Below, one piece after another: positions 293 through 25,948 of a DNA stretch of 27,287 nt. The stretch spans positions 1-27,287 of IMG/VR virus record IMGVR_UViG_3300010366_000056; one strand, 5' to 3'. Made by a program: the position numbers and the translations under genes. The first letter of the stretch is position 1. Each line of letters opens with the position of its first letter. Source of the stretch: a virus (Duplodnaviria; Caudoviricetes). The notes beneath the pieces were generated by a model. It did no database searches and had not been told where the DNA came from. It was given only the letters and a program-made list of their open reading frames with translations.

Positions 293-3200
293 CTAAGCGG
301 CGACCGACTGCTCGGTCGGTAGCTCAAGTCGTTCAAGGATAATGCTTCCCTTGTCATGTTGGTACTTTCCGTATACAAGTACGACCCTCCCTCTGATGAG
401 TGAGTGTAGGTACTGTCGCCATTCGTTGGGGAAAACCACGATATCGTACTTACCCACCCCGTCATAGGTAACTTCCACGAACGCCATCTTTTCTCCTCTG
501 CGGGTGGAGATTTCCCGAACACCTGTAACCAAGCCACCTATCCAGTAGCTCGAATCAAAAGGTCGGTTCATACTGCTGACATTCGTAGCCGATCTCATCT
601 TCCTATCAAGCTTCACTCGATAGTTGTCCAGAGGATGCACTGAAACGTAAGCACCTAATAGCTCCAACTCCACCTTTGCTCGGTCGGACTCTCCAGGTAT
701 TCCAATACTCTCCAGAGCACCTATCCGTATGAGTTGATCGACGACACGCTTGTTACATCGCCTCCTGTCTACTCCAGTCCAGATTTGCTCCAGACTACTG
801 AACGGTCTTCTTACCATTATCTCCTCGCAGGCTTTGGGGCCTACACCAAGTATAGCAGTCAGACCGTAACGAATCGTCCTGCGGCCTGTTGGTGTGAAAC
901 CTACGTTACTGCGATTGATGTCTGGCGACTTGAACCTGATCTTGAAATAGCGCTTGGCCTCTTCAATCACCACGGGCCGCTCTTTGTTCTCTCGATGGCT
1001 TAGAAGAGCACAGTAAAATATCTGGGGGTAGTAAGTTTTGAGCCAAGCTGTCTGGTAAGCGATCACCGCATAAGCTGTCGAATGCGCTCGGTTGAAGCCA
1101 TAGCCACGATAGTTGAAGATCATTTCCCAGATCTTGTTGGCTACTTCCTGTGTACATCCGTTATTCAGCGCGCCTATACAATGACCACCCTTGTAATCTC
1201 CCCCATCAAAGAATATAGGCTTGAGATCATCCCACACGTCGCCCTTCTTATACTTGATAGCCTCCTTCAGTTCGTCGACGACATGGTGATCCATACCAGC
1301 GATCTGTAGTCCGATCTCCATGACCTGCTCTTGATAGAGCACAACCCCCTTTGGGAGAATGCTGCGTAGTCTTGGATCAGGCAAAGTCCGAACAAGGTGG
1401 GCACTACCCTTGTCCCGACCTTCTTTATAAGGACGAACGAACTGATTCGCGCCGCCTCTTCCAAGAGCCATGACGGCAATAAGATCTTCAAACGATTTGA
1501 GCTGAAGGTCACGTACCACCTGACGCGAGGCTGCCCCTTCGACTTGAAATACACCAGCACAAGCCCCAGAGTTGATGACACGCCAAACCTCAGGATCTTC
1601 ATACTCGGACATCCCTTCAAAGGGATCCTCACCAATGTAGTCGATGCACTCTTGGATGATGTCAAGGGTATCAAGACTGAGGATGTCAAATTTCACCACC
1701 CCTAACTTCTTCAGCGCGTTCATGTCATACTGCGTGACTACAGCTATATTCCCCCTGCCTGCGCCACGCCCTACGGTCATGGTAGGTACGAGCCTTCCAA
1801 GATCGAATGTGTTGTCGCTGATAACAACACCCGCCGCATGCTTGCCTTCGCCGTTTACAAGCTCCTGTATGGTCGTACACCAGTCGTAGAAACCTGCATA
1901 TTGCTCCATAGCCTCAACCACGGTATGCGGTAGGCCAGGTTGCTTGAGTAGTTCTCCTAGCTCGCCACTGGCCTTGAGGTTGACGATGGCCGCGCTATCG
2001 GGGAAACTCTTGCTCGCTCCCATGCACTCCTGTGCCGAGTAGCCCAGGACGCGTAGGATTCTCTGTATCGTACCCCTTGGCCCAAGCCGAGCGAACGTCC
2101 CAACTTGCCTGGCTTGATATGGCGCCTGATTATATCGTTCGATGATGTATTGGACGACCTCGTCACGTCTACTGCGAGCAAAGTCGACATCAAAGTCAGG
2201 TAGCGACGGGCGCGCAGGATTGAGAGCACGCTCAAACATGAGATCGTACCTGATAGGGTCAACATCGACAATGCCCATAAGGTAGGCTGCGAGTACCCCT
2301 GCCATAGAGCCACGACCAGGGCCAACCCGTATGCCGTGATTCCTAGCCCAACGGATATAATCACGGACAATAAGAAATTCCTCTTCAAACTTCGCGCCAA
2401 AGATAATCTTGAGCTCGTACTGTAGCCGATCCCAGTATACCTGTACATCCTGTGCAAGTGTGCCATTCTCATCAAGCTTCCTGAGCCTACGCTCACAAAG
2501 ACTACGCATGTAGTCGGCCGCAGTTACGCTAGTATTCTTGCGGGGAGCTACTGGGATATGCCACACTCTGTTCTCGAACTCGGGTATGCTGATGTCTACC
2601 TTGCCTACCAGATCACTGATAGCAGTCTGGCTGTAGCGCCACGTTGTAGTGTCCCACAACGCCTTGACTTCTTGCCACGTCTTCAGGTGATACCCATAGC
2701 CACTGAAGTGGAAGCGGTCTGTGTCCCGCCACTTTGCCCCTGTCTGCATCGCCAGCCAGATATCGTGTATATCATGCTGCTCTGCGTCCACATAGTGACT
2801 ATCGTTCGTTATGACATGCGGTATGCCGTACTTCTCGGACCAGCGTATGAGCCTTGAATTCACTTGATCCAAGGTCTGCCCATACTCGATATCGCCAGGG
2901 TTGTTCCGCCGCAGGTCATGTCGCTGTAGCTCGAGATACAGATTTGGGAATAGCTCCCTCAGATATAGCAGTTGCTCTCGGGCCTGCCCATACTTCTTGG
3001 CTAGTATCAGGCTCGGTACATGCCCGTTGAGACATGTGGTTGTGATAGCAATGCTAGCTCTGTCCCGCCTGCTCAGTTTCTCTAGTACGTCATAGTCTAC
3101 CCTCGGCCTGTAGTAGAAATACTCGGGGCTGTTTGCGATACTACTGAGCTCGCACAGCACTTCGTATCCACGCTTGTTCAGGGCTAACATCAACAGATGG

Positions 3201-3481
3201 TAAGTGCGCGGCCCTTCTTTCTTGCCAGTTTCGACATTGAGTGTGCGGGTTCTGTCTGCATGATCCTCACACAGATAGAACTCCTGACCAATGATTGGTT
3301 TGACATCCTCCTTACGGCATGCCGCGTAGAACTCAGGTGCGCCGCTCAGTCTACCATGATCAGTTAGAGCTAGAGCTGCCTGCCTGTTCTGCGCTGCCTT
3401 ATGCACTAGATCCTCGATGGGCGCAAGCCCATCCAGAATGCTGTATTCGCTATGCACGTGGAGATGCGCAAATCTGTTCAT
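293..3481 (-). CDS. dnaE: DNA polymerase III alpha subunit (DnaE-type family C polymerase)
   Basis: PHP motifs HLHVHSEYSILDG, TDHG, GQEFY, TNDSHY; GPGRGS; catalytic PDFDVDF and KFDIL; YQEQVM; YGFNRAHS; C-terminal OB fold (GEKMAFVEV). Confidence 0.97.
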   Translation of the reverse strand: MNRFAHLHVHSEYSILDGLAPIEDLVHKAAQNRQAALALTDHGRLSGAPEFYAACRKEDVKPIIGQEFYLCEDHADRTRTLNVETGKKEGPRTYHLLMLALNKRGYEVLCELSSIANSPEYFYYRPRVDYDVLEKLSRRDRASIAITTTCLNGHVPSLILAKKYGQAREQLLYLRELFPNLYLELQRHDLRRNNPGDIEYGQTLDQVNSRLIRWSEKYGIPHVITNDSHYVDAEQHDIHDIWLAMQTGAKWRDTDRFHFSGYGYHLKTWQEVKALWDTTTWRYSQTAISDLVGKVDISIPEFENRVWHIPVAPRKNTSVTAADYMRSLCERRLRKLDENGTLAQDVQVYWDRLQYELKIIFGAKFEEEFLIVRDYIRWARNHGIRVGPGRGSMAGVLAAYLMGIVDVDPIRYDLMFERALNPARPSLPDFDVDFARSRRDEVVQYIIERYNQAPYQARQVGTFARLGPRGTIQRILRVLGYSAQECMGASKSFPDSAAIVNLKASGELGELLKQPGLPHTVVEAMEQYAGFYDWCTTIQELVNGEGKHAAGVVISDNTFDLGRLVPTMTVGRGAGRGNIAVVTQYDMNALKKLGVVKFDILSLDTLDIIQECIDYIGEDPFEGMSEYEDPEVWRVINSGACAGVFQVEGAASRQVVRDLQLKSFEDLIAVMALGRGGANQFVRPYKEGRDKGSAHLVRTLPDPRLRSILPKGVVLYQEQVMEIGLQIAGMDHHVVDELKEAIKYKKGDVWDDLKPIFFDGGDYKGGHCIGALNNGCTQEVANKIWEMIFNYRGYGFNRAHSTAYAVIAYQTAWLKTYYPQIFYCALLSHRENKERPVVIEEAKRYFKIRFKSPDINRSNVGFTPTGRRTIRYGLTAILGVGPKACEEIMVRRPFSSLEQIWTGVDRRRCNKRVVDQLIRIGALESIGIPGESDRAKVELELLGAYVSVHPLDNYRVKLDRKMRSATNVSSMNRPFDSSYWIGGLVTGVREISTRRGEKMAFVEVTYDGVGKYDIVVFPNEWRQYLHSLIRGRVVLVYGKYQHDKGSIILERLELPTEQSVAA

Positions 3482-3537: not shown

Positions 3538-4038
3538 TTAGCATCCGCCTACGGACCATTCACTCCTGGAGCCAGGATATTTGAGTAGCATGAATCCCAT
3601 CACCCGCCGCACATCTGCCAGCGAATGGAGACTCAAGGGTCCCGTGTAGCCCGTTGCCGCGCGATACAATGCGACGTGTCTCGCCCAGGTTCCTTGAAAG
3701 TATTGGCCTGGACCATTTGCTCCACTGCCTCTACGGTTAGGGATATCCAACCCACCGCTCTCTTTTGAGATAATACAGTCAACCCGCGCCATCGGCCCCA
3801 CGATTGAGGGAATTGGTGGCGGAGGCGGAGCTAGCACACCAGTCACAATCAGGTATTGTCGCGGCGACAACCCTGTTGTAAATGATGCACCCTGCAAATC
3901 AATGGGATCAACCTCCACTTCTTGTGCTAGTTGGATCACTTCGTCACTGACAGCAGGCGCATCCGTGTCGTCCGCAGCATACGCGACACTCTGGGTAAGT
4001 GCCGAAGCTATCAGTGCGAAACTGGCGAATAGTCTCAA
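3538..4038 (-). CDS. Secreted lysozyme-like/Rpf-type lytic transglycosylase
   Basis: Signal peptide MRLFASFALIASALTQSVAYA; proline-rich linker; CIISKESGG (catalytic Glu) then SGANGPGQYFQGTW and terminal W..GC; RBS AAGGAGG before the TTG start. Confidence 0.75.
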   Translation of the reverse strand: MRLFASFALIASALTQSVAYAADDTDAPAVSDEVIQLAQEVEVDPIDLQGASFTTGLSPRQYLIVTGVLAPPPPPIPSIVGPMARVDCIISKESGGLDIPNRRGSGANGPGQYFQGTWARHVALYRAATGYTGPLSLHSLADVRRVMGFMLLKYPGSRSEWSVGGC

Positions 4039-4082: not shown

Positions 4083-4326
4083 CTACGATCACCCTGTTTG
4101 CGTACCGAAGAATCTTGCGTAACTGGTCCTCGGACACAAGGTAATCGCCGAAGTAGGTTAGCTGGATAACGGTAAACTCGGGCATGCCGTCCGAATACGC
4201 GAGATCGCACCACGCTTCACTATTCTCGACCCTGGTCTTCATGTAGATATTGCCAGGGTTGATAATATCAAATAAGCGCTGGTTGGATTCTGCTGAAGGC
4301 GTTGAAGTTTCTGGTTCTTCCGCCAC
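4072..4326 (-). CDS. Hypothetical protein (start uncertain; alternative ATG at 4242)
   Basis: Fills the gap between flanking co-oriented genes; no recognisable motif. Confidence 0.55.
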   Translation of the reverse strand: MAEEPETSTPSAESNQRLFDIINPGNIYMKTRVENSEAWCDLAYSDGMPEFTVIQLTYFGDYLVSEDQLRKILRYANRVIVDRK

Positions 4327-5209
4327 CTCTTACAACACTCCCATCTGGTCTTTGTCCTGTACGCATCCGCATATATTTGCTGAACTCGCACAGGCAATTC
4401 TCAATATCACTTGCCACAATAGTCTTATTCTGCCAGTATGGGAATGCCAAATCATACTGCTGGAAGTAGCTCTGCTGACTATCTGCAAGGCTGTGTATGG
4501 CTAGATGATACGATTTGACACCACGGATACCTGGGTACAGCCATTTTAGCCCATTGATACAGCCAGGACCAGCTTCAGCAAAGCTGTTGCGGTCTAGCCG
4601 TGGGTCATAATATGCCCAATCCACGGCTACCTGGAAGCCTAGAAAGCGTCCAAACCCATCTACGCCTAGGAATACGTGATAGGCTCGCTCAAAGTCTGGA
4701 GCGTTGTTCAGACGCACAACAATCTCGGGCACCTTCTTCTGGAGCAGCTCCATCAAGAAGCACACGTTGCTCACCTTATCGGTGTAGTTGCCAAACTTGA
4801 CGCCCGTTACCGTGAATGCACCCGTGAACGGTTGATTGCCTGTTTCGTTCACCCAATACTTGATATAACCTGCCTGATCTCGATGGTCCCAGGGGGTGCG
4901 CCACTCGAGATATGGCTTACCATCACGCAGAAAGTCAAACGTGGGTATGGCGTTGAAGTAGCGGTAGACCAGTATGTTCCACAGCGCATCCTCGGGTGTA
5001 CCGAAGGTAGCCGCAGCCTCCAGCACCCCGATGATGTATTGTGTTCCACGGTCTAGCTCCCGATACACGTTGCAGAAGTGGTGGTTTGCCAGCCACTGAT
5101 CCTGCGTCCAAGGCGGGAGATCTTGCCTCTCGAAGCGCCTGTGGTAGACCATCTGGCGCTCGTACACGAACTGCCAGAATAGCCTCATGTTGTCAGGGTT
5201 TTCTGTCAT
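4268..5209 (-). CDS. 5-hydroxymethyluridine DNA kinase-like protein (aGPT-PPlase clade 1 / HMUDK helical domain family)
   Basis: Family signature ER...PPWTQD.WL..HHFCNVYRELDRGT, YRYFN, FTGAF, GFGRFLGFQVAVD, GPGC.NGL, DIENCLCEFSKY.R. Confidence 0.85.
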   Translation of the reverse strand: MTENPDNMRLFWQFVYERQMVYHRRFERQDLPPWTQDQWLANHHFCNVYRELDRGTQYIIGVLEAAATFGTPEDALWNILVYRYFNAIPTFDFLRDGKPYLEWRTPWDHRDQAGYIKYWVNETGNQPFTGAFTVTGVKFGNYTDKVSNVCFLMELLQKKVPEIVVRLNNAPDFERAYHVFLGVDGFGRFLGFQVAVDWAYYDPRLDRNSFAEAGPGCINGLKWLYPGIRGVKSYHLAIHSLADSQQSYFQQYDLAFPYWQNKTIVASDIENCLCEFSKYMRMRTGQRPDGSVVRGGGRTRNFNAFSRIQPALI

Positions 5210-5454
5210 GCGTTGCCAGCCCTCAAATCTTCTCCGTATTTACCAATCTCCCTATGCAACGAACTAATGTATTCCATGTCTGCTTCAGTTGGCTCACGGT
5301 TGTCATCAAGCTCTGTAACCAGAGCCGCTAAGATACTTGCTGCACCACCATAGAATGCCCGACGCATCTCTTGCCTTTGGATGCTCGAAACATTATAGAG
5401 GCCTACCCGCAGTGAAAAATCATCCCACTGTTCGGATATAGACTTACGTTTCAT
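5206..5454 (-). CDS. Small hypothetical phage protein
   Basis: ATGA overlaps on both sides; QRQEMRRAFYGGA helical motif of a type seen in phage hypotheticals. Confidence 0.75.
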   Translation of the reverse strand: MKRKSISEQWDDFSLRVGLYNVSSIQRQEMRRAFYGGAASILAALVTELDDNREPTEADMEYISSLHREIGKYGEDLRAGNA

Positions 5455-6449
5455 ATGAATGCCATGTCACTTGGTTTAGATAGCTCTTCGTTCAGCACGT
5501 CATTGTACACGGAGAACCTGCAATCATAGTAGTTACACTCGTGGGTCTGCACCCTGTTCATTGCCTCAAGATGCTCTTGCCCATACCACAATTCAATGAA
5601 CTTCTTCTCTGTCAAGCTTCCAATACTTATGTCCTCCTCTCGGTCCTGATAGTAGCAGCAAATCCACACGGTACCTAATGCGTCTACCACGGTATGCAGC
5701 GGGTTGAGCCAGCATACACCGTTCTGGTGAGTCTTCTGGGTGCTCCCAAACACTTTACGTGGGTACTTGGCACTTAGCGCGGCCAAATGCTCTGTGAGGC
5801 ATTCCTGTGCGTCTTGCGGCAGCAGGGCAGGGTCGTCCGCATTATGACGCTTTGGCTTGATACTTACGAAGTCTACACCAGTGTCCAGAATCTCAGCTAC
5901 GAGATAGTCAAGCATTGGAATATCGCTGATACCAAGAAGAATCTTGCCACCGACGCTTGCGTTCGATCGCGTGTTATTGCGAGATCGTACGATATCTCTA
6001 AGTGATCCGAGCTGATTGACAGTATATACGCTAACGCGGATGTACCGTACTCCGTTGTAACAGAGAAGACGGCCAATAGTCTCAGGGTTGGTTCCATTGG
6101 TGATCATGCCAAACTGTAGGCCCTGTTCGCGTATTGCGTCCATGAGATCGTCGAACTTGGGATGCAGCGTTGGTTCGCCGCCACCCGAGAACTCGATGCT
6201 CTCTCCGCCCATAACAGCAAACTCTGTTACGAAGCGTTTGAATATCTCCGCATCCAGGCTAACAGGAGTCTTGGCATTCTCCGCATTCGCAACACATCCG
6301 AAACACCTCATATTGCAGAAGTATGTCGGATAGACTATTGCCATCGTAGGCGCTACCATCTTACCCTGGTGTAGCCTGATGGCATCCTTCCTGAAGGCCA
6401 ATGCCTTGTCTCGCAAGCTAACAGGAGCGTAGCTTATATCAGTAGTCAC
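5451..6449 (-). CDS. Radical SAM enzyme with C-terminal SPASM/twitch domain
   Basis: CNMRCFGC (CX3CX2C), SGGGEPTLHP, ITNGT, IRVS, C-terminal CWLNP...G.V.ICC...IGSL...ELW...C....C; start re-called to GTG 6449 (GAGG RBS, overlaps the GT stop). Confidence 0.93.
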   Translation of the reverse strand: MTTDISYAPVSLRDKALAFRKDAIRLHQGKMVAPTMAIVYPTYFCNMRCFGCVANAENAKTPVSLDAEIFKRFVTEFAVMGGESIEFSGGGEPTLHPKFDDLMDAIREQGLQFGMITNGTNPETIGRLLCYNGVRYIRVSVYTVNQLGSLRDIVRSRNNTRSNASVGGKILLGISDIPMLDYLVAEILDTGVDFVSIKPKRHNADDPALLPQDAQECLTEHLAALSAKYPRKVFGSTQKTHQNGVCWLNPLHTVVDALGTVWICCYYQDREEDISIGSLTEKKFIELWYGQEHLEAMNRVQTHECNYYDCRFSVYNDVLNEELSKPSDMAFI

Positions 6450-7920
6450 CAAATGCCTCAACCCAAGCTCTTGCCACACCTGTCATGAATCTGATCCATC
6501 TGACCCCGTCGGCGGGTCCCGTGGGTAGAGCCACTTGTCCGTTAGATACAGCAAGATGCCGAACAATATCACCGACGTCGGAACCAATGGAATCTGTTGT
6601 AGCCAACTCAGCAACGAGTTCCTCTTGTTCTGGGGCCTCTTCTTCAATAGTAGCGGGTTTAGGAGCATACTTGCTCACGTATGGCTTGAGCTCGTACTGT
6701 GTGTACTCATAAATCGGGACTTCGTCTGTGCAGATATTATCATAGAACGTGGCAGGATGCTCTGGATCTTTGATAAGGTCTGCGTCCAGAAACTCAAGCA
6801 CCATGTAGGCCAGTGCTCTTGCGTCGCTATACTCGGACACAAAATCAAGTGCCCGTTGTGCGATACGCGCCCTGGTCTTAGGCTTGCGCATGATCTCGTT
6901 TACGCGCTCCGCAATCCCCTGGGGATCAGACGGTACAGTCCAGGTTATGTCTTGTCCTGCCAGTGGCGACCACGGATGACTGTCAACCTTCTCATGCACA
7001 ATTGATAGGCAGCCGTACACCATTGCCTCAAACATGATACAGCTTGTCTGACCATCGAAACGGTCGCCAATACTGCCAGCAAGATCAATACTAGCCGCGT
7101 GGGTTTGATAAATTCCAGGAATAACATCTGGCAGTTGGCTCCCCCAATACTGGTGCTCTGGGTTGCCGTTACCCTTGGTCTTGTTGACGTGGTTCAGCCC
7201 AATCGCCCTCTTCCACAACCCAGAAGGATCTTGCCGCGCGTTGTGATATTCGATACCACTGTTGTATAAGTCCACGGGTACCTGGATGTCTGGCAGCGCT
7301 GCCAAGAATGAGTAGATCCCCTTCCACTTCTTCCATTGCGGCATCCAGCAGAGCGTGGAGGTCTTGTCGTCCTGGTACAGTCCCGCCTTCCGTACGTCTA
7401 ATGGCGTAGGCAAGAAGACGTAGTTTCCTGGTAGTCTGCTCAGGCTGTCGTACTTCGACTGATAGCACGTAAACAGGTGGAACTTCACTAGGTCGCTCAC
7501 TTGTCGATACCATTGGTAGTACCTATCCCAAAGGTTGTCGTGGATAATAACAACAATCGGCTTGCCTAGTTCAGCGGCGACCTCGTACAGCATCATCCAA
7601 CTCATGTCTCCACCCTTGCCTTTGATGTCATGGGGACACGCTTGAATCATGAGCAGTACGTCGTATTGCCTGAGCAATCTTGAGAAGTTATGAGCGCTAT
7701 CTTTTCGCTTGTAGCTTAGCTGGCGTGCTGGCAGGCGGTAGTAACGGTCGTTGACCATCGTAGGAGTCTCAGGACTTAGGCTGCGTAGCTTGCCGCTAGT
7801 GCTGGCCCAATAATAGTCAAAGGTGCAGCCTGCGGTTCGCAGACCGTATCCAAGACCTTCAACTATCCTGTTGATACCGCCACGCTCGATGACATCAAAA
7901 TCAACGGCTAGGAACTTCAA
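6439..7920 (-). CDS. GT-B glycosyltransferase resembling T4 DNA alpha-glucosyltransferase
   Basis: ERGGINR, YDVLLMIQACP, VVIIHDN, PTPLDV, WMPQWKKWKGIYSF, SGIE and FEAMVYG occur in the same order as T4 Agt motifs recalled from memory (EGCGVTK, CDILIINSVP, VVYQHDH, QPPMDI, WIGRTTTWKGFYQM, EGLE, LELGACG); GGAGG RBS before the TTG start. Confidence 0.85.
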   Translation of the reverse strand: MKFLAVDFDVIERGGINRIVEGLGYGLRTAGCTFDYYWASTSGKLRSLSPETPTMVNDRYYRLPARQLSYKRKDSAHNFSRLLRQYDVLLMIQACPHDIKGKGGDMSWMMLYEVAAELGKPIVVIIHDNLWDRYYQWYRQVSDLVKFHLFTCYQSKYDSLSRLPGNYVFLPTPLDVRKAGLYQDDKTSTLCWMPQWKKWKGIYSFLAALPDIQVPVDLYNSGIEYHNARQDPSGLWKRAIGLNHVNKTKGNGNPEHQYWGSQLPDVIPGIYQTHAASIDLAGSIGDRFDGQTSCIMFEAMVYGCLSIVHEKVDSHPWSPLAGQDITWTVPSDPQGIAERVNEIMRKPKTRARIAQRALDFVSEYSDARALAYMVLEFLDADLIKDPEHPATFYDNICTDEVPIYEYTQYELKPYVSKYAPKPATIEEEAPEQEELVAELATTDSIGSDVGDIVRHLAVSNGQVALPTGPADGVRWIRFMTGVARAWVEAFGDY

Positions 7921-8458
7921 CGCGATCCTCCACCTTCAAAACCTCTGGTACATTATACGGCACGTGAAGTTCATCGGTTATCAAGAAGAGAAGAAAGTTG
8001 GCACACTGTTCCATGTCTACGAATATGCTGGTGCAGAGCGCACGCCACCCATCATAGCCCTGGTCTAGCGGTGCTTGATCGACACCAATAATTCGGCGGC
8101 CTCGTGCATACGCATATCCAACTTCCGTAGCTCCGAAGAGACTGTTGTTTCCGATAAGCGAAACCACCAGATCACAGCGATCAATAAGAAGCAGATCGCG
8201 AGGTACGTAGAATCGTGGGTCTCCGTGGTGCCCGTTGCCATTCCAGTCACTCCTGTCGGGGGCAGGTCGCGGGTGTAGATAAGTGATATGGCTACGCAGA
8301 TCCTCCATCTGCTGCCTGGGTCTACTCCAATCGTCTGGTGTGTTGGGCCAGTTTATCATAATCTGCTGTTTTATCACACGATCAACAGCACCGACAAACT
8401 CAGCACGCCAGGGTACCCGCATACTCCCACAGGTGTAGACTGAAATGGCATGTGGCAT
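7901..8458 (-). CDS. Nucleoside 2-deoxyribosyltransferase-fold protein, DNPH1/Rcl-like nucleotide N-glycosidase
   Basis: SVYTCGSMR, RDLLLIDRCDLVV and SLFGATEVGYAYARGRRII (catalytic Tyr/Asp/Glu); start ATG 8458 in a TGATG overlap. Confidence 0.85.
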   Translation of the reverse strand: MPHAISVYTCGSMRVPWRAEFVGAVDRVIKQQIMINWPNTPDDWSRPRQQMEDLRSHITYLHPRPAPDRSDWNGNGHHGDPRFYVPRDLLLIDRCDLVVSLIGNNSLFGATEVGYAYARGRRIIGVDQAPLDQGYDGWRALCTSIFVDMEQCANFLLFLITDELHVPYNVPEVLKVEDRVEVPSR

Positions 8459-8769
8459 CAGAGGTCTTCCCACTCGAGCCTGTAGCCGACAAGCTCCGTT
8501 TCAACGTTGGTGGAATGTATGAGACTGAGGTGACATCCCGTCGCCACGTACTCATTGGTATCCGCTGTGTTGTGCTCTTTACAGATAGTTATGCGGTTAC
8601 CTGGGTCTGGAGTGCTCTCATACATCAGAGTCTTGCCGCGCTTGGTCCTGACAGACAACCCCAATGATACCAGTACCAGATCTGCACGCCCTTGACAGAT
8701 AGCGCAGCTGAACCCAGGCTCTTCATACACAAGCTCTGGGCCAAACATCTCATCCAGGTTTGGCATCAT
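8458..8769 (-). CDS. Hypothetical protein with CxxC...CxxH possible zinc site
   Basis: CAIC and CKEH; overlaps both neighbours in operon fashion; start 8769 or 8766. Confidence 0.65.
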   Translation of the reverse strand: MMPNLDEMFGPELVYEEPGFSCAICQGRADLVLVSLGLSVRTKRGKTLMYESTPDPGNRITICKEHNTADTNEYVATGCHLSLIHSTNVETELVGYRLEWEDL

Positions 8770-9253
8770 GCCACCGATCAATGGTGTACGGCGCTGGACT
8801 TTCTGTTACCTCATTTACCACCAGCCCGTTAGGCGGACGATCATCATCATCGTCCTGAAAGTTGAGTCCCTCCCATGCTAGGATCATGAAAGCGCGTACG
8901 ATTAGATCAAACAATACGCCTCGGCGTTTGTCTGGATCCCAATTCAACGCCGCCCCGTTGCGCCATGCACCTGATAAGCGTGCCAGCTTATCGATCATGT
9001 CCGCAGTTGGGATAATCTCACCTAGTGTCTGCCAACTACTATCGTACTGGTAGTTCTTCTGGGCCACCAGTGCATCGAAACGCCTCAACGCTGCCGCGAA
9101 CTCTGGGTTTATCTCACGCATCAGCGTTTCGTAATCGCCAGGGGTGAGAGACTGCCCTGGGCCGTAGCCCAGGACATGCTCTGCAAATTGGTTGATCAAC
9201 CAGCCCTGCTGGATCTCAACCCGCCTAGTTTCGACGGTCTCGCTCGGCTCCAC
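8750..9253 (-). CDS. Nucleotide modification-associated domain 1 (Nmad1/DUF1599; all-alpha NTP-pyrophosphatase-like) protein
   Basis: KNYQYDSSW..LG......DKLARL and L.DL...A.M pattern. Confidence 0.7.
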   Translation of the reverse strand: MEPSETVETRRVEIQQGWLINQFAEHVLGYGPGQSLTPGDYETLMREINPEFAAALRRFDALVAQKNYQYDSSWQTLGEIIPTADMIDKLARLSGAWRNGAALNWDPDKRRGVLFDLIVRAFMILAWEGLNFQDDDDDRPPNGLVVNEVTESPAPYTIDRWHDAKPG

Positions 9254-10515: not shown

Positions 10516-10697
10516 TAGAGCTCCTTCACCTCGCTTATACCTTCACGCAACTCTTGCGGGGTGACCACTCTATCCATTGCGATGGCTGCATTGCAGGCAG
10601 TACAGCGGAGCACAAGCTGACCCTTCCAAGCCACAATATTCGTGGCATGGCAGATAGGGCACACCAGCCTGGCTCCATCCATCAATTGACCACTCAT
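10515..10697 (-). CDS. Small zinc-ribbon protein
   Basis: CPIC...CTAC; ATGA and TAGTG coupling to neighbours. Confidence 0.65.
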   Translation of the reverse strand: MSGQLMDGARLVCPICHATNIVAWKGQLVLRCTACNAAIAMDRVVTPQELREGISEVKEL

Positions 10698-11686
10698 CGT
10701 CGTGTACGTGCTACAGGCTTGGCGACTGTTGCTCGGGACCTGGCTGTGGGGAGAGGCTTGCGCTGGACACGACGAGCGGGACGGACTGGCTCCTCGTCAT
10801 CTTCCTCTTCATCCTCTTCATCTTCTTCTTCGTCGTCGGCTTCTTCGTCATCCTCAACTTCCTCGTCCTCGTCGTCATCACGAGCTACGGGCTTACGAGC
10901 ACCACGCTTGGGAGCAGGAGCCTCCTCCTCTTCCTCTTCGTCCTCCTCATCTTCATCTTCTTCGTCTTCGTCGTCCAGGTCTTCGACCTCCTCGTCCTCA
11001 TCCTCATCATCTTCGAGGCGGGAAGTCTTGGGCTTGGCCCGAACGTTGGCACCGTAGTAGTTCTCGACCTCGCTGGCGAGCTCTTCATCTGCACTCAGCT
11101 TGACGAACTTACTGAGGGCACGAATGCGGCCATCGATCTCCAGCTTGCCAATCTCCTCACCATCGATCTCGTACTTGGTATCCACGTCGCTGCCAATGCG
11201 CACGATGGTCCAGTTGCGATTCATGAGGGTTGGCTCGCGGTCACCAGCCTTGCCACGGCTGCGCTCGTACTTGATGATGAAGCTGTCGACCATGCCCTTG
11301 GTCATGTACAGCAGGCGGACCTCGCCAGTGCCTACGTCCACCACATTCGCGAGCCATCGTGTCGCAGCACGGGCTGCGGGATTGCCATCCAACTGGCACC
11401 CTTTGTGACACGGTACTCTGCTCCAGAAACCGCCGCTGCGTTGAATACCGTGCTCGTAGAACTTGGTCCAGGCTTGACCAGGCTCACCAAACGGCTCATC
11501 CAGAAAGCGCACCGTAACGCTCTCTTTGTCACGCAAGCGGATAACCTTGCTGGGAGTGCGCGCAGCATCACGCTTCAACTGGTCGAGCGTGCCAGCCGTG
11601 CTGCTGTTGACCTGGATCTTCTCTGGGCGCGTCCCGTTAGTACCGTTGCGCGATACACTCTTAGGCTTGAGCCTACCTTCTGCCAT
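10694..11686 (-). CDS. Single-stranded DNA-binding protein (T4 gp32-like) with a long acidic/basic disordered tail
   Basis: VRFL, YEH..., C...C, W.ANVVD, I.R.G...DTKY pattern; located next to primase and helicase; start re-called to ATG 11686 (GAGGAGG RBS). Confidence 0.8.
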   Translation of the reverse strand: MAEGRLKPKSVSRNGTNGTRPEKIQVNSSTAGTLDQLKRDAARTPSKVIRLRDKESVTVRFLDEPFGEPGQAWTKFYEHGIQRSGGFWSRVPCHKGCQLDGNPAARAATRWLANVVDVGTGEVRLLYMTKGMVDSFIIKYERSRGKAGDREPTLMNRNWTIVRIGSDVDTKYEIDGEEIGKLEIDGRIRALSKFVKLSADEELASEVENYYGANVRAKPKTSRLEDDEDEDEEVEDLDDEDEEDEDEEDEEEEEEAPAPKRGARKPVARDDDEDEEVEDDEEADDEEEDEEDEEEDDEEPVRPARRVQRKPLPTARSRATVAKPVARTRR

Positions 11687-11795
11687 ACGTGCCCTCCTCA
11701 TGGCACCAAATGTGTGTGAAACAGGTTGGTCGTCGGATGCGCTGTTGTAAGCCGTCTTTTAGCCCTCCTGCCTGGATTGGTTTTGGCATGCCAAC

Positions 11796-19499: not shown

Positions 19500-20735
19500 T
19501 CATTTTATATGTTCAATAATCGTAACGTTGCTGTAGATGCCTGTGTTGGTAGAAATTGAGCCTGCCCCTTGTAGCGACCATGCAAATGCAATGGAGAAGC
19601 CTGAGTAGATACCTGGTCCATACGAGTATATAAACGGAACTGTCTGCGCGCCATTTGCAGCAGAGCAACTATTGATCTGCACTCGGTTATTAGCATCCGC
19701 TCCATTGATGTAGACACTTATGGTCATACCAGAACCGACATTACTTTGGATCAGAGCAAGATTGGCAATGATAATAACCTTGCCGCCTTGATACCCAGAG
19801 CAAGCCATACCAGAACCGAGTTGTCCAGGCATATAGACTGCAGAGCCGCTACTAGTACTCCCCGCTGGAGCAAGAGTAAACGTCCACATATGGGAGATAT
19901 AGCCGTCAGGGATCTGGGCGTTGAAGTTACCCTGCCTCAGTAAAACTTGCCCTGAAGCATAATCTGTGGGGCCAGCGGCAGGAAACATAAGACCAGCAGC
20001 GGTGTTATCGTTATATATGCCGTTGCCACTACCACTGATACGGAAGTAATCACCCGTCAATCTAATGGTACCGCTTGAGGAGATACTTGTCACTGTAGCA
20101 GCATTCATACTCGTAGTCGCTGCCTGGAGTACGAGCGTGCTTCCATTGAGTTGGATGTATGATCCGCTAGGCCAGGTAAGTAGGTTTGTATTCTGTCCAA
20201 ATGTAATGTTGCCGACAACAGTTAGGCCAGCGCCGAGTGAAGTAGCTCCATCAACGACTAGAGAGTAGTTGTTCGTCGCTCCTGATGGTGCCCCAATGCG
20301 AACCACGTAGTTGTTGACAAAACCTGTAGGAGCTACCATCCCAACAAACTGCGCCCCAACACCTGTCAAGCCAGTCTTACCATTGGCTATCAGGCCTGGT
20401 GCATTGTAGATCCCATAACAGAAATCATTGTTGTTCGCAGCAGCGGCAGAGGCTTGATTATTCAGACCACAGACAGCAGCTCCAGCTCCTCCAGCTCCAT
20501 TCGTATATACCCCTGTCGTGGCAATAGCCGTATTGGAGCCACTAGGATGCGGAGCAATACTGAGAGCTGAAGATGGGCTTGGAGTATAATTGACTCCAAG
20601 ACCGTTATTGACTTGGAGTCCAGTTATAGTCTGGTTTGCGGCAATCTTGGCTCCAGTAACGGCACCATTAGCCAGATCAGCTGTCTGGATAGTGGCATCT
20701 TGGATCTGGTTGCCTTTTACCATTACCTCTGCCAT
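19500..20735 (-). CDS. Tail fibre / receptor-binding protein
   Basis: N-terminal IQDATIQTADLANGAVTGAKIA shaft repeats; Gly/Ser/Asn-rich beta regions; C-terminal beta-sandwich head ending VTIIE. Confidence 0.8.
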   Translation of the reverse strand: MAEVMVKGNQIQDATIQTADLANGAVTGAKIAANQTITGLQVNNGLGVNYTPSPSSALSIAPHPSGSNTAIATTGVYTNGAGGAGAAVCGLNNQASAAAANNNDFCYGIYNAPGLIANGKTGLTGVGAQFVGMVAPTGFVNNYVVRIGAPSGATNNYSLVVDGATSLGAGLTVVGNITFGQNTNLLTWPSGSYIQLNGSTLVLQAATTSMNAATVTSISSSGTIRLTGDYFRISGSGNGIYNDNTAAGLMFPAAGPTDYASGQVLLRQGNFNAQIPDGYISHMWTFTLAPAGSTSSGSAVYMPGQLGSGMACSGYQGGKVIIIANLALIQSNVGSGMTISVYINGADANNRVQINSCSAANGAQTVPFIYSYGPGIYSGFSIAFAWSLQGAGSISTNTGIYSNVTIIEHIK

Positions 20736-20744
20736 GAGATTCTC

Positions 20745-22274
20745 CTATGGATTAGCCTCTATCGTGATATACTGCTGAGCTGCGGTGCCAACTAATCTAC
20801 TCGAGTTACCCGCTACTAGACCACCGCCACATGATAGAAGAAACACACTGCTATTAGGAGAAGTATAGTTGGCACTACCACCTGTAACAGCTACAACGGC
20901 TCCACCAGAGTTAGTAATCTGTGGTGAGCCAACAATCGTGACTGTTGGCACAATCGGCTTCGGTATGTAGTGAATCTGGAAAGCAGCAGTCGTAGTCGAA
21001 TACACAGCTCCCAACGCCAACTCTGTCTGCACCTGTGACGGATAACCAATAATCTCATAATACCGCCAACATCTTGCCAAGTCGTCCGCGGGATGCAGAG
21101 GAACAAAATCCGACGCTACCGTGCCTATAGTCAGCATGGCGCTATCGATATAAGCAACCCCAGAGTTTGTATCGAAGTAAGCGCTCGCTGCTACATAGCT
21201 ACAGGCTCCCAAAGATACTGTCACGCTAAGTGTCTGCCAGGTTCCATCTCCAGAGTGATACAGGCTTCTTGGAGAAGGAGTATTATATATCCCACCACCA
21301 CCAGCATCCGTATCAAGACCTACACGGACCATATTGGCGACAGAACACAATACACGCATCGATAGAGTTACAGTACGTCCTGCCAACTGAAAAGCATCAG
21401 CTTGTTTGAGATACTGAAGTACGGCACTGCTGTTTCCCGATCCTTTGGTATATGTCACGCCAGCAGAGTAATTAGAGCCAGTTACGCCATAATCGGCGTT
21501 ATTACCCGTAGCCCGACTAACACTCAACGTATCGGAACCATTGACACCAAGTAACCATCTATCAGCACAGTAATTACCTGTAAATGGACCAGTTCCTCGT
21601 TGCCAGATCTCAAAACCGCCATTGGTCAAATAGTTGGGTCTCAAGAGATCTGAGGCAATACGCTCATTCGGCAGTGCGTCTGGATAAGATGTAGCTGGAA
21701 AGAAGTTCTCTGCCACTTGCCCTATGACTAAACTAGCACTATCTACGTATGTTGTTCCAGCGGTTGATCCTTGGCACTGCAAGCCAACGCTTATATTATT
21801 CGTATTCAAAGGGATGGAAAAGGTCATCCAGAGTGTATGATAAGCTCCATCTGCAGGAGCTATCATCGTTGGACTAAAAGTACCACCAGTTCCATCAGTC
21901 CAAGCAAATATCACGACGTTTGCTTGAGTTGTTTTGACTCGAAGACTAAGGGTGACCGTTTTTCCTCTTAGTGGTGCCGCAGGAGGAGTCTGCTGTATCC
22001 CACCATATCCGCCGCCTCCTGCAATGGAGTTCACCATCGCTACACAGTACAATCCTGTATCCTGGTTGACAGAATCTCTAGAAACTGTAAGCGTGGAGCC
22101 AGAGCCAGTGCAGATCGTTTGCCATTGATCTGCGATTGCAAAGGTTGGATTACCCGTCGTTGCCGCAAACGGTCCAGGACCACGATGCCATTGCTCAAAG
22201 CCGCCATTCTGTAACAGGTTCGGCCTGGCAACGTCGGGGGCCAGCATCAAGTTGGGAACAAGAGTCTTACTCAT
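20745..22274 (-). CDS. Receptor-binding protein with two tandem carbohydrate-binding-like (CBM4_9/galactose-binding-like) domains
   Basis: Two NxLxNGGFExWxRGxGPF...ADxW...YxDSAxL modules, HPADDLARCWRYYE, C-terminus IEANP. Confidence 0.8.
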   Translation of the reverse strand: MSKTLVPNLMLAPDVARPNLLQNGGFEQWHRGPGPFAATTGNPTFAIADQWQTICTGSGSTLTVSRDSVNQDTGLYCVAMVNSIAGGGGYGGIQQTPPAAPLRGKTVTLSLRVKTTQANVVIFAWTDGTGGTFSPTMIAPADGAYHTLWMTFSIPLNTNNISVGLQCQGSTAGTTYVDSASLVIGQVAENFFPATSYPDALPNERIASDLLRPNYLTNGGFEIWQRGTGPFTGNYCADRWLLGVNGSDTLSVSRATGNNADYGVTGSNYSAGVTYTKGSGNSSAVLQYLKQADAFQLAGRTVTLSMRVLCSVANMVRVGLDTDAGGGGIYNTPSPRSLYHSGDGTWQTLSVTVSLGACSYVAASAYFDTNSGVAYIDSAMLTIGTVASDFVPLHPADDLARCWRYYEIIGYPSQVQTELALGAVYSTTTAAFQIHYIPKPIVPTVTIVGSPQITNSGGAVVAVTGGSANYTSPNSSVFLLSCGGGLVAGNSSRLVGTAAQQYITIEANP

Positions 22275-23203
22275 GGATTGGCCTCTATTGTGATATTCGC
22301 CCCTCCGCCAGAGGCATAGTAATAACTATCGCCCGCATTAGTCGCCGTATAGTAGACCCAGAACACGTTCACGCCTGCTACTGGAAGAGTGAAGCTACTA
22401 GCTGTCACATTTGCCGCAACCCACGTTCCAATCGCAGTCAATGTAGGAGTAGCTGCTTTCTTAGCTTTGAGCCATACAAGATTTCGAATTGTAGCTCCTG
22501 CCGCCTGTGCCTGGCCTGAGAAAATCAGCTCGCTGTTGCCGTCACTACTAAGCGCTCGCTCGTAGTACCGAAGACATCTTGCCACATCATCAGCGAGATT
22601 CATTGGGATATATGTCATCGGCACTTGGCCTACTACGAGCGTACAGTTGTCGACCCAGAACGTAGTATTGATACTTGCCCCTTGTACAAACACTTCAACT
22701 CGGAAGAATGTTGCATTTGCCCCTACAACAGAAGTTATACTAAGTGTTTGATAAGTATTGTCGCCAGTATGAAAATTGTAGGTCGTAGGAGTAACGGTAT
22801 TATTGCCGCCGCTATTCCAGTAAACTCGTACTGCACAGATCCCAGCGACACTACATCTTACTCTTGCTGCGAATGTAACCGTCCGCCCGCGCAACTGGTA
22901 GACTTCTTCGATATCCTGGTTGATGCCAACAAGAGATCCCGTCGCATTAGTCGTTGCTGTTACCGCCGCACAGTAGCGTGAACCAGCGCCATCATAGTTA
23001 GAGGCATCGGGAATGACACTAATAGTAGGAGCACCTGTTCCTTCAGCGTAGGTCTTCCATCTATCTGCCGACATAACAGTGGGAGAGAGTGAAGTGTATG
23101 GTCCGTTTCCGCGCTGCCATACCTCTAGCCCAGGATTGACAAGCAGATTCTGTCGTGCCGTATCAGAGGCCAGATCCTGATTACGCACCAATTGTTTAGG
23201 CAT
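22271..23203 (-). CDS. Receptor-binding protein with one CBM-like domain (paralog)
   Basis: NLLVNPGLEVWQRGNGPY, ADRW, ADDVARCLRYYE, C-terminus IEANP. Confidence 0.8.
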   Translation of the reverse strand: MPKQLVRNQDLASDTARQNLLVNPGLEVWQRGNGPYTSLSPTVMSADRWKTYAEGTGAPTISVIPDASNYDGAGSRYCAAVTATTNATGSLVGINQDIEEVYQLRGRTVTFAARVRCSVAGICAVRVYWNSGGNNTVTPTTYNFHTGDNTYQTLSITSVVGANATFFRVEVFVQGASINTTFWVDNCTLVVGQVPMTYIPMNLADDVARCLRYYERALSSDGNSELIFSGQAQAAGATIRNLVWLKAKKAATPTLTAIGTWVAANVTASSFTLPVAGVNVFWVYYTATNAGDSYYYASGGGANITIEANP

Positions 23204-23215
23204 CAGTAGCCCTCC

Positions 23216-23224
23216 AGTATAGCA
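23216..23224 (-). promoter_or_regulatory. Candidate internal extended -10 promoter (TGcTATACT)
   Basis: The 11-mer ATGCTATACTG is identical to the helicase promoter and lies in a 24-nt intergenic gap. Confidence 0.45.
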
Positions 23225-23227
23225 TAA

Positions 23228-25948
23228 TCATGGATTAGCCTCGAACGCGATGGAGCCTGCGGTAGAGTTATTGGCAAACAGTGTCGCTACGTTGCCCGCA
23301 ACCAATCCATTGGATACGCCAATGACTGTCCTACAAACCTGGGTAGTAGTAAAATCGGTGGTTATACTAGTCAATGCCAACGGACTAAAAGTAGCATTCA
23401 TTACCTGATATACTCCAACTGCACCATAAGTCACTGTCGGAGTAAGCGCAGGTGGGACTTGATAATGAGTTTGAAAGAAGCATTGAGTTGCTGCGGAACA
23501 TTGTCCTAGCGCCAATTGCGAGCTACCGTTTTCCCCGCCAACTTTCTGATAATACCGCAGACACCTTGCCAACTCATCTGCAGGATGCGTGGGGATGTAG
23601 TCAGCAGGAGTTGCAGCTTGAACAAGCATAGCGTTATCAACATATGCTGTACAAGAGCTAGTGAAATATACTCCTACCCAGACACTTATACACGAGGGTA
23701 CAATCGTTGCCGTAACCGTCAACGTCTGGTATTGCCCATTCCCGATATGATACGGCGAGAGATTTATAGTTGCATTCGTAGCATCAAAGATTGTAGCTCT
23801 AATTGCATTAGCGCTTGAAGTCTTTACACGAATGGAGAATGAGATAGTCCTGCCTGCGAAAAAATAGCCATCCCCTGTCTTGAGTACCTGAACATAGTAT
23901 GAGCCTCCCACATTTGCAGTATACGTACACGCTGCGCAAGAACCCAAGCTTCCATCAGAGTTAGCATTATCTCGACTGATAGAAAGTACGTCAGGAGTAC
24001 CAGATCCGTTATAGTAATTATTCCATCGATCTCCCGCAAACGTACCATATGCCGTAAACGGACCATTACCTCGTTGCCAGTTATCAATACTACCATTCGT
24101 CAAGAGATTGGGAGATGTACTCGGGATCACAGATCCTGGTAGCTTGCCTGTAGTCGGGTTCGTAGCAACTATAGTTCCAGGAGTAGCTACAGTATCACTA
24201 CTCGCATTGAATCCTTTGACTGTGTTAGCGTCTCCCAGCACTACACCGTAAAGATAGTTGATAACAACTCTGGTCAGACCATCAAAAGCATCCGCAAACG
24301 TAATAACATTACCAGAGATAGTGTAATGTCCATCTTGCGCTGACTGAAGTACACCATCTCGGAATACAGATGCTAGAGTCTGTGGCGTCTGACTCAGGGT
24401 AACCGTGGTAGCCGCGTTAGCAGGAACAAACTCCTCATGGAAGACTGTACTGGTTGGCATGATCGCCAACGGCAAGTGTGCAGTTCCATCTACGGCTACG
24501 AGAGCATTGGCTTGAGGAGTGCTGGCAGGCACAGCGGGGATATTGTTGACTGTGCTGGCATTCCCAGAGCCAAAGTTCTGGCTCCAGGTAACGATAACAT
24601 GCTCTCCCGCAACAAAGGCATCAGAGAACGTTACTGTCGTAGTGCCAGAGTTCCAGGTCCAGTCACCAAGAGAAGTTGATTGGGTAACACCGTTCCGCAC
24701 TACACCCAGGATCATACCTGGCACTGACATCAGAGTAACTGTCGTAGCCGCTGCTGGAGGATCGAACTCCTGATAGTAGGGTGCCGCGCCAGGAACAAAC
24801 GAGTTGACTTGATAGTAGACTACCGAGATATCATCACTAACCAGGGCTGTTGTGAAAGTGACGATCGTCCCAGCTACGGTGTAGTCTGTGCCAGAGCGTT
24901 CCTCCAGGCCGTTCTTGCTTACGGACATAATGGTATCGGCGGGCATACTCAGGGTGACTGTTGTTCCAGATACGCCTAGGAACTGGTCTCGTCGTACAAT
25001 ACCAGAGCCAAATGTGATAGCTACTGATCCGCTACCCTGGTCCGTGAGAGACCCATTGGGGAACGTCAACACTTTGGCCCCAACTACGTCAGGAGCACCG
25101 TCAACTTCTTTGACTTCCAGTGTTGGCGGGAATACAATCTCAGCTACTCCACTGCCTCTATCAATCAGAGCGCCATTGGGAACCTGGATTGTATTTACAC
25201 CATTGACGGTAGGGGCTAAGTCTACCTCGCGTACCGTAAACGGGAACGTTACTCCTACAACCTGCCCGCCAAGATCAGTTAGGCTACCATTGGGAAACTG
25301 TAGCGCTCGGGTGCCTACAACGTCTGGAGTGCCGTCGACCTCCTTGACCTCCAGACCGCCTCCGCCAATACCGCCAGTACGTATGCTGGCTGTGACTGTA
25401 TTAGAGGCATCTGGCGCAGTCAAAGAGTAGGCAAACGACCCAGGTACCACTATTGCGCTACCGCTGGCGTAATATTGTCCTGCGACGGTCTGTAGATACT
25501 GTCCCCGCAAGGTACCGCCAGCAACCTTGACGATAGCTGTCCCAGAGAGTGTGACCCTGCCAATAGCTCCCGTGGCAATGTTCTCGGCGACCACCATTAC
25601 ACGAGAGCCATCTATCCCACTGACGTTAGGCTGAATAAAGGCCATGTCCGCGCTAGGATCTGTGATCACCACATCACCAGCTACTCTTGCCGAGCCAGTG
25701 TTGTTCTTGAACAGTGCCACAGAGCCCTTATCAGCTACAATGCCGTTCTGGAACTCCCATCTACCAGTGATAATCTCATCCTGGTTGTACTCGGTCATGT
25801 TGTCCGCGATCGTGCCTTGAGCGTTATCTGTATCGCGAACAATACCCGTGATGTTGAATGTCCGCCCTGGAGGTCCAACAGGATACGTGACGTTGTAGAC
25901 GTCTGTCGGATCTGGCAGCGGGAAGCCTTTACGTGTGGTAGTCCTCAT
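23228..25948 (-). CDS. Multi-domain baseplate-attached tail fibre (hub) protein
   Basis: N-terminal anchor MRTTTRKGFPLPDPTD; three repeats of about 39 aa (V.EVD..P.V.G....FPNG.L.D.G); three beta-sandwich repeats of about 60 aa (F....TTVTL.....V.+NG......DY/WT...TF); C-terminal CBM-like module, ELARCLRYY, FEANP. Confidence 0.85.
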   Translation of the reverse strand: MRTTTRKGFPLPDPTDVYNVTYPVGPPGRTFNITGIVRDTDNAQGTIADNMTEYNQDEIITGRWEFQNGIVADKGSVALFKNNTGSARVAGDVVITDPSADMAFIQPNVSGIDGSRVMVVAENIATGAIGRVTLSGTAIVKVAGGTLRGQYLQTVAGQYYASGSAIVVPGSFAYSLTAPDASNTVTASIRTGGIGGGGLEVKEVDGTPDVVGTRALQFPNGSLTDLGGQVVGVTFPFTVREVDLAPTVNGVNTIQVPNGALIDRGSGVAEIVFPPTLEVKEVDGAPDVVGAKVLTFPNGSLTDQGSGSVAITFGSGIVRRDQFLGVSGTTVTLSMPADTIMSVSKNGLEERSGTDYTVAGTIVTFTTALVSDDISVVYYQVNSFVPGAAPYYQEFDPPAAATTVTLMSVPGMILGVVRNGVTQSTSLGDWTWNSGTTTVTFSDAFVAGEHVIVTWSQNFGSGNASTVNNIPAVPASTPQANALVAVDGTAHLPLAIMPTSTVFHEEFVPANAATTVTLSQTPQTLASVFRDGVLQSAQDGHYTISGNVITFADAFDGLTRVVINYLYGVVLGDANTVKGFNASSDTVATPGTIVATNPTTGKLPGSVIPSTSPNLLTNGSIDNWQRGNGPFTAYGTFAGDRWNNYYNGSGTPDVLSISRDNANSDGSLGSCAACTYTANVGGSYYVQVLKTGDGYFFAGRTISFSIRVKTSSANAIRATIFDATNATINLSPYHIGNGQYQTLTVTATIVPSCISVWVGVYFTSSCTAYVDNAMLVQAATPADYIPTHPADELARCLRYYQKVGGENGSSQLALGQCSAATQCFFQTHYQVPPALTPTVTYGAVGVYQVMNATFSPLALTSITTDFTTTQVCRTVIGVSNGLVAGNVATLFANNSTAGSIAFEANP

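Follow-up and report, generated by a model that had tools for sequence, protein, structure and literature searches.

Genes at the locus

The stretch analysed here (hereafter the window), a linear virus record, comprises 27,287 bases and has an estimated completeness of 30%; the element in question is a gene for a putative DNA glycosyltransferase (GT) at positions 6439–7920 of its minus strand. The open reading frame proposed in an earlier note on this DNA does exist; it starts with TTG and encodes 493 amino acids (aa). The GT gene is part of a minus-strand replication block, in which the order of genes is DnaB, primase, an acidic protein, a DUF932-like gene, a possible DUF1599 gene, a gene of the nucleoside deoxyribosyltransferase (NDT) fold, the GT, a radical S-adenosylmethionine (radical SAM)/SPASM gene, a PF18723 gene and DnaE (Table 1). 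The NDT, GT and radical SAM genes are adjacent and conserved as a trio within the GT's own clade. A protein search with the GT resulted in 27 matches: 21 full-length sequences with a C-terminal tail (the GT itself included), four fragments and two tail-less distant relatives. The 20 full-length relatives share 53–79% identity with the GT.

Table 1. Features of the glycosyltransferase and of the genes surrounding it
Feature	Position	Strand	Basis or remark
GT-B catalytic core, T4 AGT-like, residues 1–383	6772..7920	-	Profile, structure model, structure comparison
H127-D128 (= AGT H114-D115)	7537..7542	-	Family: D in 107/111, H in 63/111
W192–Y203 motif with K200 (= AGT K209, predicted diphosphate binding)	7312..7347	-	K200 in 109/111
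E298 (= AGT E311, predicted UDP-ribose binding)	7027..7029	-	Kept in 109/111
Tail-proximal segment, moderately conserved, residues 390–417	6670..6753	-	46% mean pairwise identity (21 sequences); pLDDT 85, then 67, then 43
Acidic linker, variable, predicted disordered, residues 418–471	6508..6669	-	13% identity; pLDDT <50
Amphipathic C-terminal helix, conserved, residues 472–490	6451..6507	-	57% identity; only helix in the modelled tail
Radical SAM/SPASM enzyme, 332 aa, DesII/BlsE-like, predicted sugar tailoring	5451..6449	-	GTG start at 6449
PF18723 helical (aGPT-Pplase1-type) protein, not a kinase	4268..5209	-	Only Pfam match is PF18723; PMC8989533
NDT/5'-dNMP N-glycosidase-fold protein	7901..8455	-	PF15891, E 7e-7; PDB matches weak
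Possible DUF1599 (Nmad1) nucleotide pyrophosphatase, weak label	8750..9253	-	Kept in cassette; 1/5 scanned homologs matches PF07659, E 0.14, below cut-off
DnaE-type DNA polymerase III alpha	293..3481	-	Downstream of cassette; context gene

Relationship to T4 alpha-glucosyltransferase

The GT is a member of a phage sister family of the T4 alpha-glucosyltransferase (AGT) and has the GT-B fold. AGT was its top match by profile, VIA and TM-score and is the nearest solved structure, in support of the earlier suggestion of an AGT-like DNA glycosyltransferase. The motif parallels on which that suggestion was built are borne out by alignment to the AGT sequence from its annotated record: IIHDN (residues 125–129) aligns to YQHDH of AGT, and the W-x6-WKG-x-Y spacing in WMPQWKKWKGIY (residues 192–203) is equal to that in WIGRTTTWKGFY of AGT. 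The exact form of the latter motif is found in 9 of the 111 family members and the looser W-x6-[WI]K in 57. Arg204 and His116, both residues with roles in AGT, correspond to Gln195 and Asn129 in the GT.

The relationship is visible solely at the level of profiles and structures. Pairwise BLAST of the GT against AGT gave nothing significant (best E-value 0.004), and the PF11440 profile, which scores 862 bits with T4 AGT itself, matched neither the GT nor its family (0/23 and 0/111 members); weak Pfam GT4/GT1 matches were obtained for up to 26 of the 111. A clade-pattern search, limited to what the pattern can detect, retrieved no relatives of the GT from 185,579 GTDB genomes. Five queries against cultured phages likewise found none, and tblastn with P0001 retrieved no counterpart from the cultured-phage collection.

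Supply of the acceptor base

The earlier note placed the GT in a 5-hydroxymethyluracil (hmU)-type context. This is not provable within the window, but it can be based on the relatives G001 (98% complete) and G002 (100%, with terminal repeats), the GTs of which are 55–57% identical to that of the window. Each of the two genomes carries one thymidylate synthase (TS)-like gene, located at L009:1087–2253 in G002, and in both this is a dUMP-type hydroxymethylase. The gene aligns over its full length with the SP10 dUMP hydroxymethylase and has Asn, Asp and Asp at the positions of N177, L143 and D169, respectively. We read it as a dUMP hydroxymethylase because these residues fit the rules set out in the accessible part of PMC13326640, according to which they signify dUMP as substrate, a non-methyl product and an enzyme other than a 5-hydroxy synthase.

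The same residue type recurs throughout the family. TS-like genes are present in 16 of the 58 family loci, and 15 of them are of the hydroxymethylase type with Asn; that of L052 is an ordinary thymidylate synthase adjoining a TET gene. Five more genomes were searched whole, and two contained a TS-like gene, both with Asn, so that all 19 of the 19 hydroxymethylase-type genes found with the GT family are of the Asn (dUMP) type. The AGT carriers T4 and phage G possess Asp-type (dCMP) hydroxymethylases. TET/JBP genes are absent from G001, G002 and G004 (0/3 relatives, two of them complete) and were found with the distant family members L051–L053 and G008. The dUMP-type gene in both complete relatives and the 19 family cases support 5-hmU, the acceptor favoured earlier, as the likely acceptor of the GT, and we infer that hmU is also supplied in the window's own phage.

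A small conserved gene lies near the hydroxymethylase in both relatives (L012:13324–13893 in G002, 189 aa; L016:10930–11583 in G001). Its start is reminiscent of phage C5-cytosine methylases, and it matched nothing in Pfam or NCBIfam.

PF18723 gene and kinase searches

Phosphorylated hmU had also been considered as an acceptor, with a neighbouring gene taken for a kinase. The protein encoded at 4268–5209 contains no kinase domain; it aligns to residues 303–604 of SP10 gp186, the kinase domain of which spans residues 35–193 and is active without the PF18723 half (PMC8989533, in its accessible part). PF18748, the P-loop kinase 5-HMUDK, had no match in G001, G002 or G004, and a P-loop scan of G002 yielded helicase/RecA-region and spurious matches only. 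PF18723-type genes are present in 32 of the 58 loci and the kinase in one, as judged with a two-sequence profile of low sensitivity; several GT-family loci are devoid of PF18723. No Pfam match to a clade-2 amino acid:DNA transferase was obtained among 31 proteins of the window and 69 of G002, and no genome-wide search with a profile of its own was made. Since no kinase was recognised in the window or the complete relatives, glycosylation of phospho-hmU appears unlikely in this phage.

C-terminal tail and radical SAM enzyme

The GT does extend ∼110 aa beyond its core and includes the acidic stretch ATIEEEAPEQEE (residues 423–434), as first noticed; the small helical domain thought to follow it was not recovered. 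In the structure model pLDDT is below 50 over residues 413–469, and a single helix (472–490), with a hydrophobic moment of 0.61, takes the place of a folded C-terminal domain. Across 21 sequences, identity is 75% in the core, 46% in residues 390–417, 13% in 418–470 and 57% in 471–491. The linker varies from 27 to 56 aa and holds 7–16 D/E vs 0–4 K/R. Among the 111 family members, 94 have fewer than 30 extra C-terminal residues and nine have at least 60, seven of the nine belonging to the GT's own clade. In a quick tree the tail-bearing sequences group as a single clade with a support of 100, nested among tail-less relatives.

The reported overlap of the GT with the start of the radical SAM gene is real (11 nt from the GTG at 6449), but it represents ordinary coupling; L002 and L055 lack it and still keep the helix. 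In a comparison of 33 rows, the radical SAM gene is next to the GT in 18 of 18 tail-bearing rows with downstream DNA (∼15 distinct contigs) and in none of ten tail-less ones; five rows are cut off. In L036 and L039 another radical SAM/SPASM gene accompanies a GT without a tail, and the tail is therefore not generally required for such pairing. The tail can tentatively be viewed as an acidic, flexible tether whose single helix would bind a partner, the radical SAM enzyme being the most plausible one, though we rate this as possible rather than probable; other partners, self-association or membrane binding may account for it instead. T4 AGT binds the gp45 clamp, a precedent for recruitment to the replisome (PMC13216743, in its available part); nothing in our analysis points to the replisome as the partner of the tail.

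Close relatives of the radical SAM enzyme (56–79% identity) track the tail clade, beyond which identity falls to ∼35%. When its family profile was compared with the PDB, DesII and BlsE ranked first, BlsE being second-best; both act on nucleotide- or base-linked sugars. We infer that the enzyme reworks the sugar added by the GT, on DNA or on the donor. At 22 distant viral loci, the scanned neighbours (68 of 113, at 21 loci) are often glycosyltransferases, methyltransferases or a sulfotransferase, and some of these relatives reside in glycan clusters adjoining tail-tube genes. Locus L110 (1228–4999) combines an Asp-type hydroxymethylase, PF18723, TAGT (GT-A) and a relative of the window's radical SAM gene; the same tailoring enzyme may have been recruited there into a 5-hydroxymethylcytosine (hmC) cassette with another GT fold.

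Proposed pathway and alternatives

Taken together, we consider it probable that the GT transfers a hexose from an NDP-sugar onto the hydroxymethyl group of hmU in new phage DNA. The predicted product is an analogue of base J with an alpha linkage, on which the radical SAM enzyme would act next to remodel it. What is observed is the fold, the motifs, the conserved cassette, the dUMP-type hydroxymethylase in complete relatives and no recognisable kinase or TET in them. In such a pathway hydroxymethyl-dUMP would be synthesised and would replace dTMP during incorporation into DNA, while the NDT-fold and DUF1599-like proteins likely clear thymine nucleotides. The GT would flip hmU out of DNA and attach an alpha-linked sugar, base flipping and retained configuration being predicted by analogy with AGT and GT4 enzymes, and the hexose of the donor being likewise a prediction. 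The radical SAM enzyme could oxidise, dehydrate or epimerise the attached sugar, the PF18723 protein may have a DNA-binding or transfer role, and the finished modification would block host nucleases.

Several observations weigh against this reading. The window fragment carries no hydroxymethylase gene, and in the relatives ∼13–15 kb separate that gene from the GT gene. The 19 Asn cases come from related genomes and are not independent. A whole-genome search of G007 (L020), a complete 170-kb genome of a sibling clade with a GT, a PIG-L-like gene and a second GT4-like gene, produced no match to TS-like or TET genes, and G002 has no recognisable dNMP kinase. PF18723 stands next to an Asp-type gene in L110 and is thus no marker of hmU. 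The margin of AGT over GT4 is thin: ranked by Foldseek E-value, seven GT4 rows precede AGT (1.7e-12 vs 1.4e-11), and in a separate comparison Tll1590 matches at 1.7e-11. Of the ten tail-less rows, two break off 100 nt or less from the GT, and tail and radical SAM gene amount to one evolutionary event, a single joint gain, so that the tether is at most suggested.

The GT might instead act second on DNA, glycosylating an adduct, or its phosphate, first made by the PF18723 protein or an unrecognised kinase. The frequency of PF18723-type genes agrees with this, clade-2 relatives of PF18723 are group transferases on phospho-hmU (PMC8989533, accessible part), and SP-15, YerA41 and Carin-5 have glycosylated thymidines with a linker and phosphate (PMC12686479, accessible part). 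Given the kinase searches described above, the activity of the SP10 kinase without its PF18723 half and the loci that lack PF18723, we regard such an order of events as unlikely. Chemistry on free bases or nucleotides would have the NDT release hmU, the GT glycosylate it and the radical SAM enzyme reshape the sugar, the outcome being either a small molecule or a nucleotide modified before replication. Mildiomycin and blasticidin synthesis starts with a hydroxymethylase, the NDT-family hydrolase MilB, the base glycosyltransferase MilC/BlsD and the radical SAM enzyme BlsE, and both the conserved gene trio and the rank of BlsE recall it. Yet the best structural match of the GT is a DNA enzyme, and the wider family mostly does without the NDT and this radical SAM gene while retaining the hydroxymethylase and DNA-replication neighbours, making this route improbable.

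The acceptor of an AGT-like enzyme could also be hmC or another modified cytosine: hmC is the natural acceptor of AGT, the same radical SAM family and PF18723 accompany the Asp-type gene in L110, and the start of the 189-aa gene of G002 fits. With no TET/JBP in G001, G002 and G004 and an Asn-type gene as the sole TS-like gene there, we see very little chance of a cytosine acceptor. A generic GT4-type role in making glycans of lipids, virions or the cell surface, the amphipathic helix serving as membrane anchor, would explain the weak Pfam matches, the Foldseek order, automatic names such as 'cell wall biosynthesis' and the glycan clusters around distant radical SAM relatives. The rank of AGT by the three other measures, the position of the gene inside a replication block, the lack of relatives in GTDB genomes within reach of the pattern and the family-wide tie to hydroxymethylases render it highly improbable.

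A more far-reaching extension of hmU glycosylation by the GT is that a widespread family of AGT relatives in uncultured phages makes alpha-glycosyl-hmU, the anomer of base J, without a kinase and diversifies the sugar through plug-in de-N-acetylases or radical SAM enzymes. Here a DNA-mimicking acidic tether and helix would hold the radical SAM enzyme on the GT, one complex installing and remodelling the sugar on DNA. We consider this proposal as a whole doubtful.

Comparison with known systems

Phage DNA glycosylation and hmU hypermodification are already known; new are the link to AGT by test, the family-wide Asn/Asp split and the anatomy of the tail. With T4 AGT (PF11440; PDB 1xv5, 1y6f, 1y8z) and gp306/gp313 of phage G the GT shares GT-B over the full core, the H-D pair, W-x6-WKG-x-Y, the conserved Lys and Glu and a phage replication context. 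Unlike these enzymes, to which it is 10–14% identical, it lacks a PF11440 match, differs at the Arg204/His116 positions, travels with dUMP-type rather than dCMP-type hydroxymethylases and has a 110-aa tail and a radical SAM partner gene. The predicted product, O-glycosyl-hmU in DNA, is like kinetoplastid base J (beta-glucosyl-hmU). However, phage hmU would come from a nucleotide-level hydroxymethylase and not from JBP/TET, the predicted linkage is alpha, the sugar is likely tailored further, and the phage GT is GT-B whereas the J-glucosyltransferase is GT-A.

The 5-HMUDK/AADT systems of M6, ViI, PaMx11, PhiW-14, SP10 and SH-Ab 15599, as presented in the available parts of PMC8989533 and PMC13458397, likewise comprise a dUMP hydroxymethylase (here in G001 and G002, not in the window), a PF18723 protein and a radical SAM tailoring gene, but here neither the P-loop kinase nor, by Pfam match, a clade-2 transferase was found, and a glycosyltransferase appears to stand in their place. 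The oligosaccharide-thymidines of SP-15, YerA41 and Carin-5 resemble the predicted product as sugar-bearing phage thymidines with GT and deacetylase genes near the polymerase, although there the sugars are attached through a pentyl linker and a phosphate (PMC12686479, accessible part). Metavirome GT-B/ThyS and TET clusters (Pyle et al., 10.1101/2023.12.21.572611) also place phage GT-B genes near thymidylate synthase homologs; products there are on 5hmC, and the available text does not treat hmU acceptors for ThyS-linked GT-B or tailoring by radical SAM enzymes or deacetylases.

In the literature as far as accessible, phage hmU hypermodification proceeds by kinase and amine transferase. The pyrimidine hydroxyls shown there to be O-glycosylated directly belong to cytosine derivatives; T4 beta-GT glucosylates hmU in duplex DNA only at hmU:G mispairs (PMC4111573). 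No report of a phage GT that glycosylates hmU directly in vivo was found in the available portions of PMC8989533, PMC13229309, PMC12686479, PMC13458397, PMC13216743, PMC7824862, PMC13326640 and Pyle et al.; Iyer et al. 2013 may predict it. If true, a GT acting on hmU in normal duplex DNA would be a third route and a tool to label or map hmU or to make base J analogues, and would suggest that radical reactions take place on a sugar attached to DNA.

Sibling clades and other genes

In the sibling clade L019–L030 (e.g. L022:10001–11719, L029:9995–14262) the GT is followed by a PIG-L-like de-N-acetylase gene in 12 of 12 loci; all nine such genes scanned match PF02585, two above the cut-off. Nine of the loci have an Asn-type hydroxymethylase and PF18723, and three a TAGT-like second GT. 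This arrangement suggests that N-acetylglucosamine is added and then converted to glucosamine, predicting glucosaminyl-hmU DNA. In the cultured jumbo Bacillus phage G (L080:9731–21038), the AGT homologs gp306 and gp313 carry ∼60-aa C-terminal extensions and adjoin gp319, an Asp-type hydroxymethylase of the long SPO1-like kind. Its DNA is predicted to carry glucosyl-hmC, of which our literature search found no published measurement. In six of the nine loci L042–L050 the GT gene is preceded by genes for ParB and a PA0069-type radical SAM enzyme; no hydroxymethylase or TET was seen in the L042–L050 fragments. In L051–L053 the GT gene comes directly after a TET/JBP gene, with an NAD-dependent sugar epimerase in two loci and an amidoligase/GATase in L053; a post-replicative route like that of base J is possible there.

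Four tail-region proteins are encoded at 19500–25948 (minus strand) of the window, three with a common repeated carbohydrate-binding-like module (NGG.E.WQRG.GP) that matched no Pfam family. The 335-aa protein at 10694–11701 (minus strand), very acidic in its C-terminal third, is kept in relatives without a family match and might, as a guess, be a single-stranded DNA-binding protein. Between the PF18723 gene and DnaE lies a gene for a small protein with a signal-like start (3538–4038, minus strand); at this position L072 has a gene with a weak SLT match, and in other relatives the place is taken by a small gene unrelated to it.
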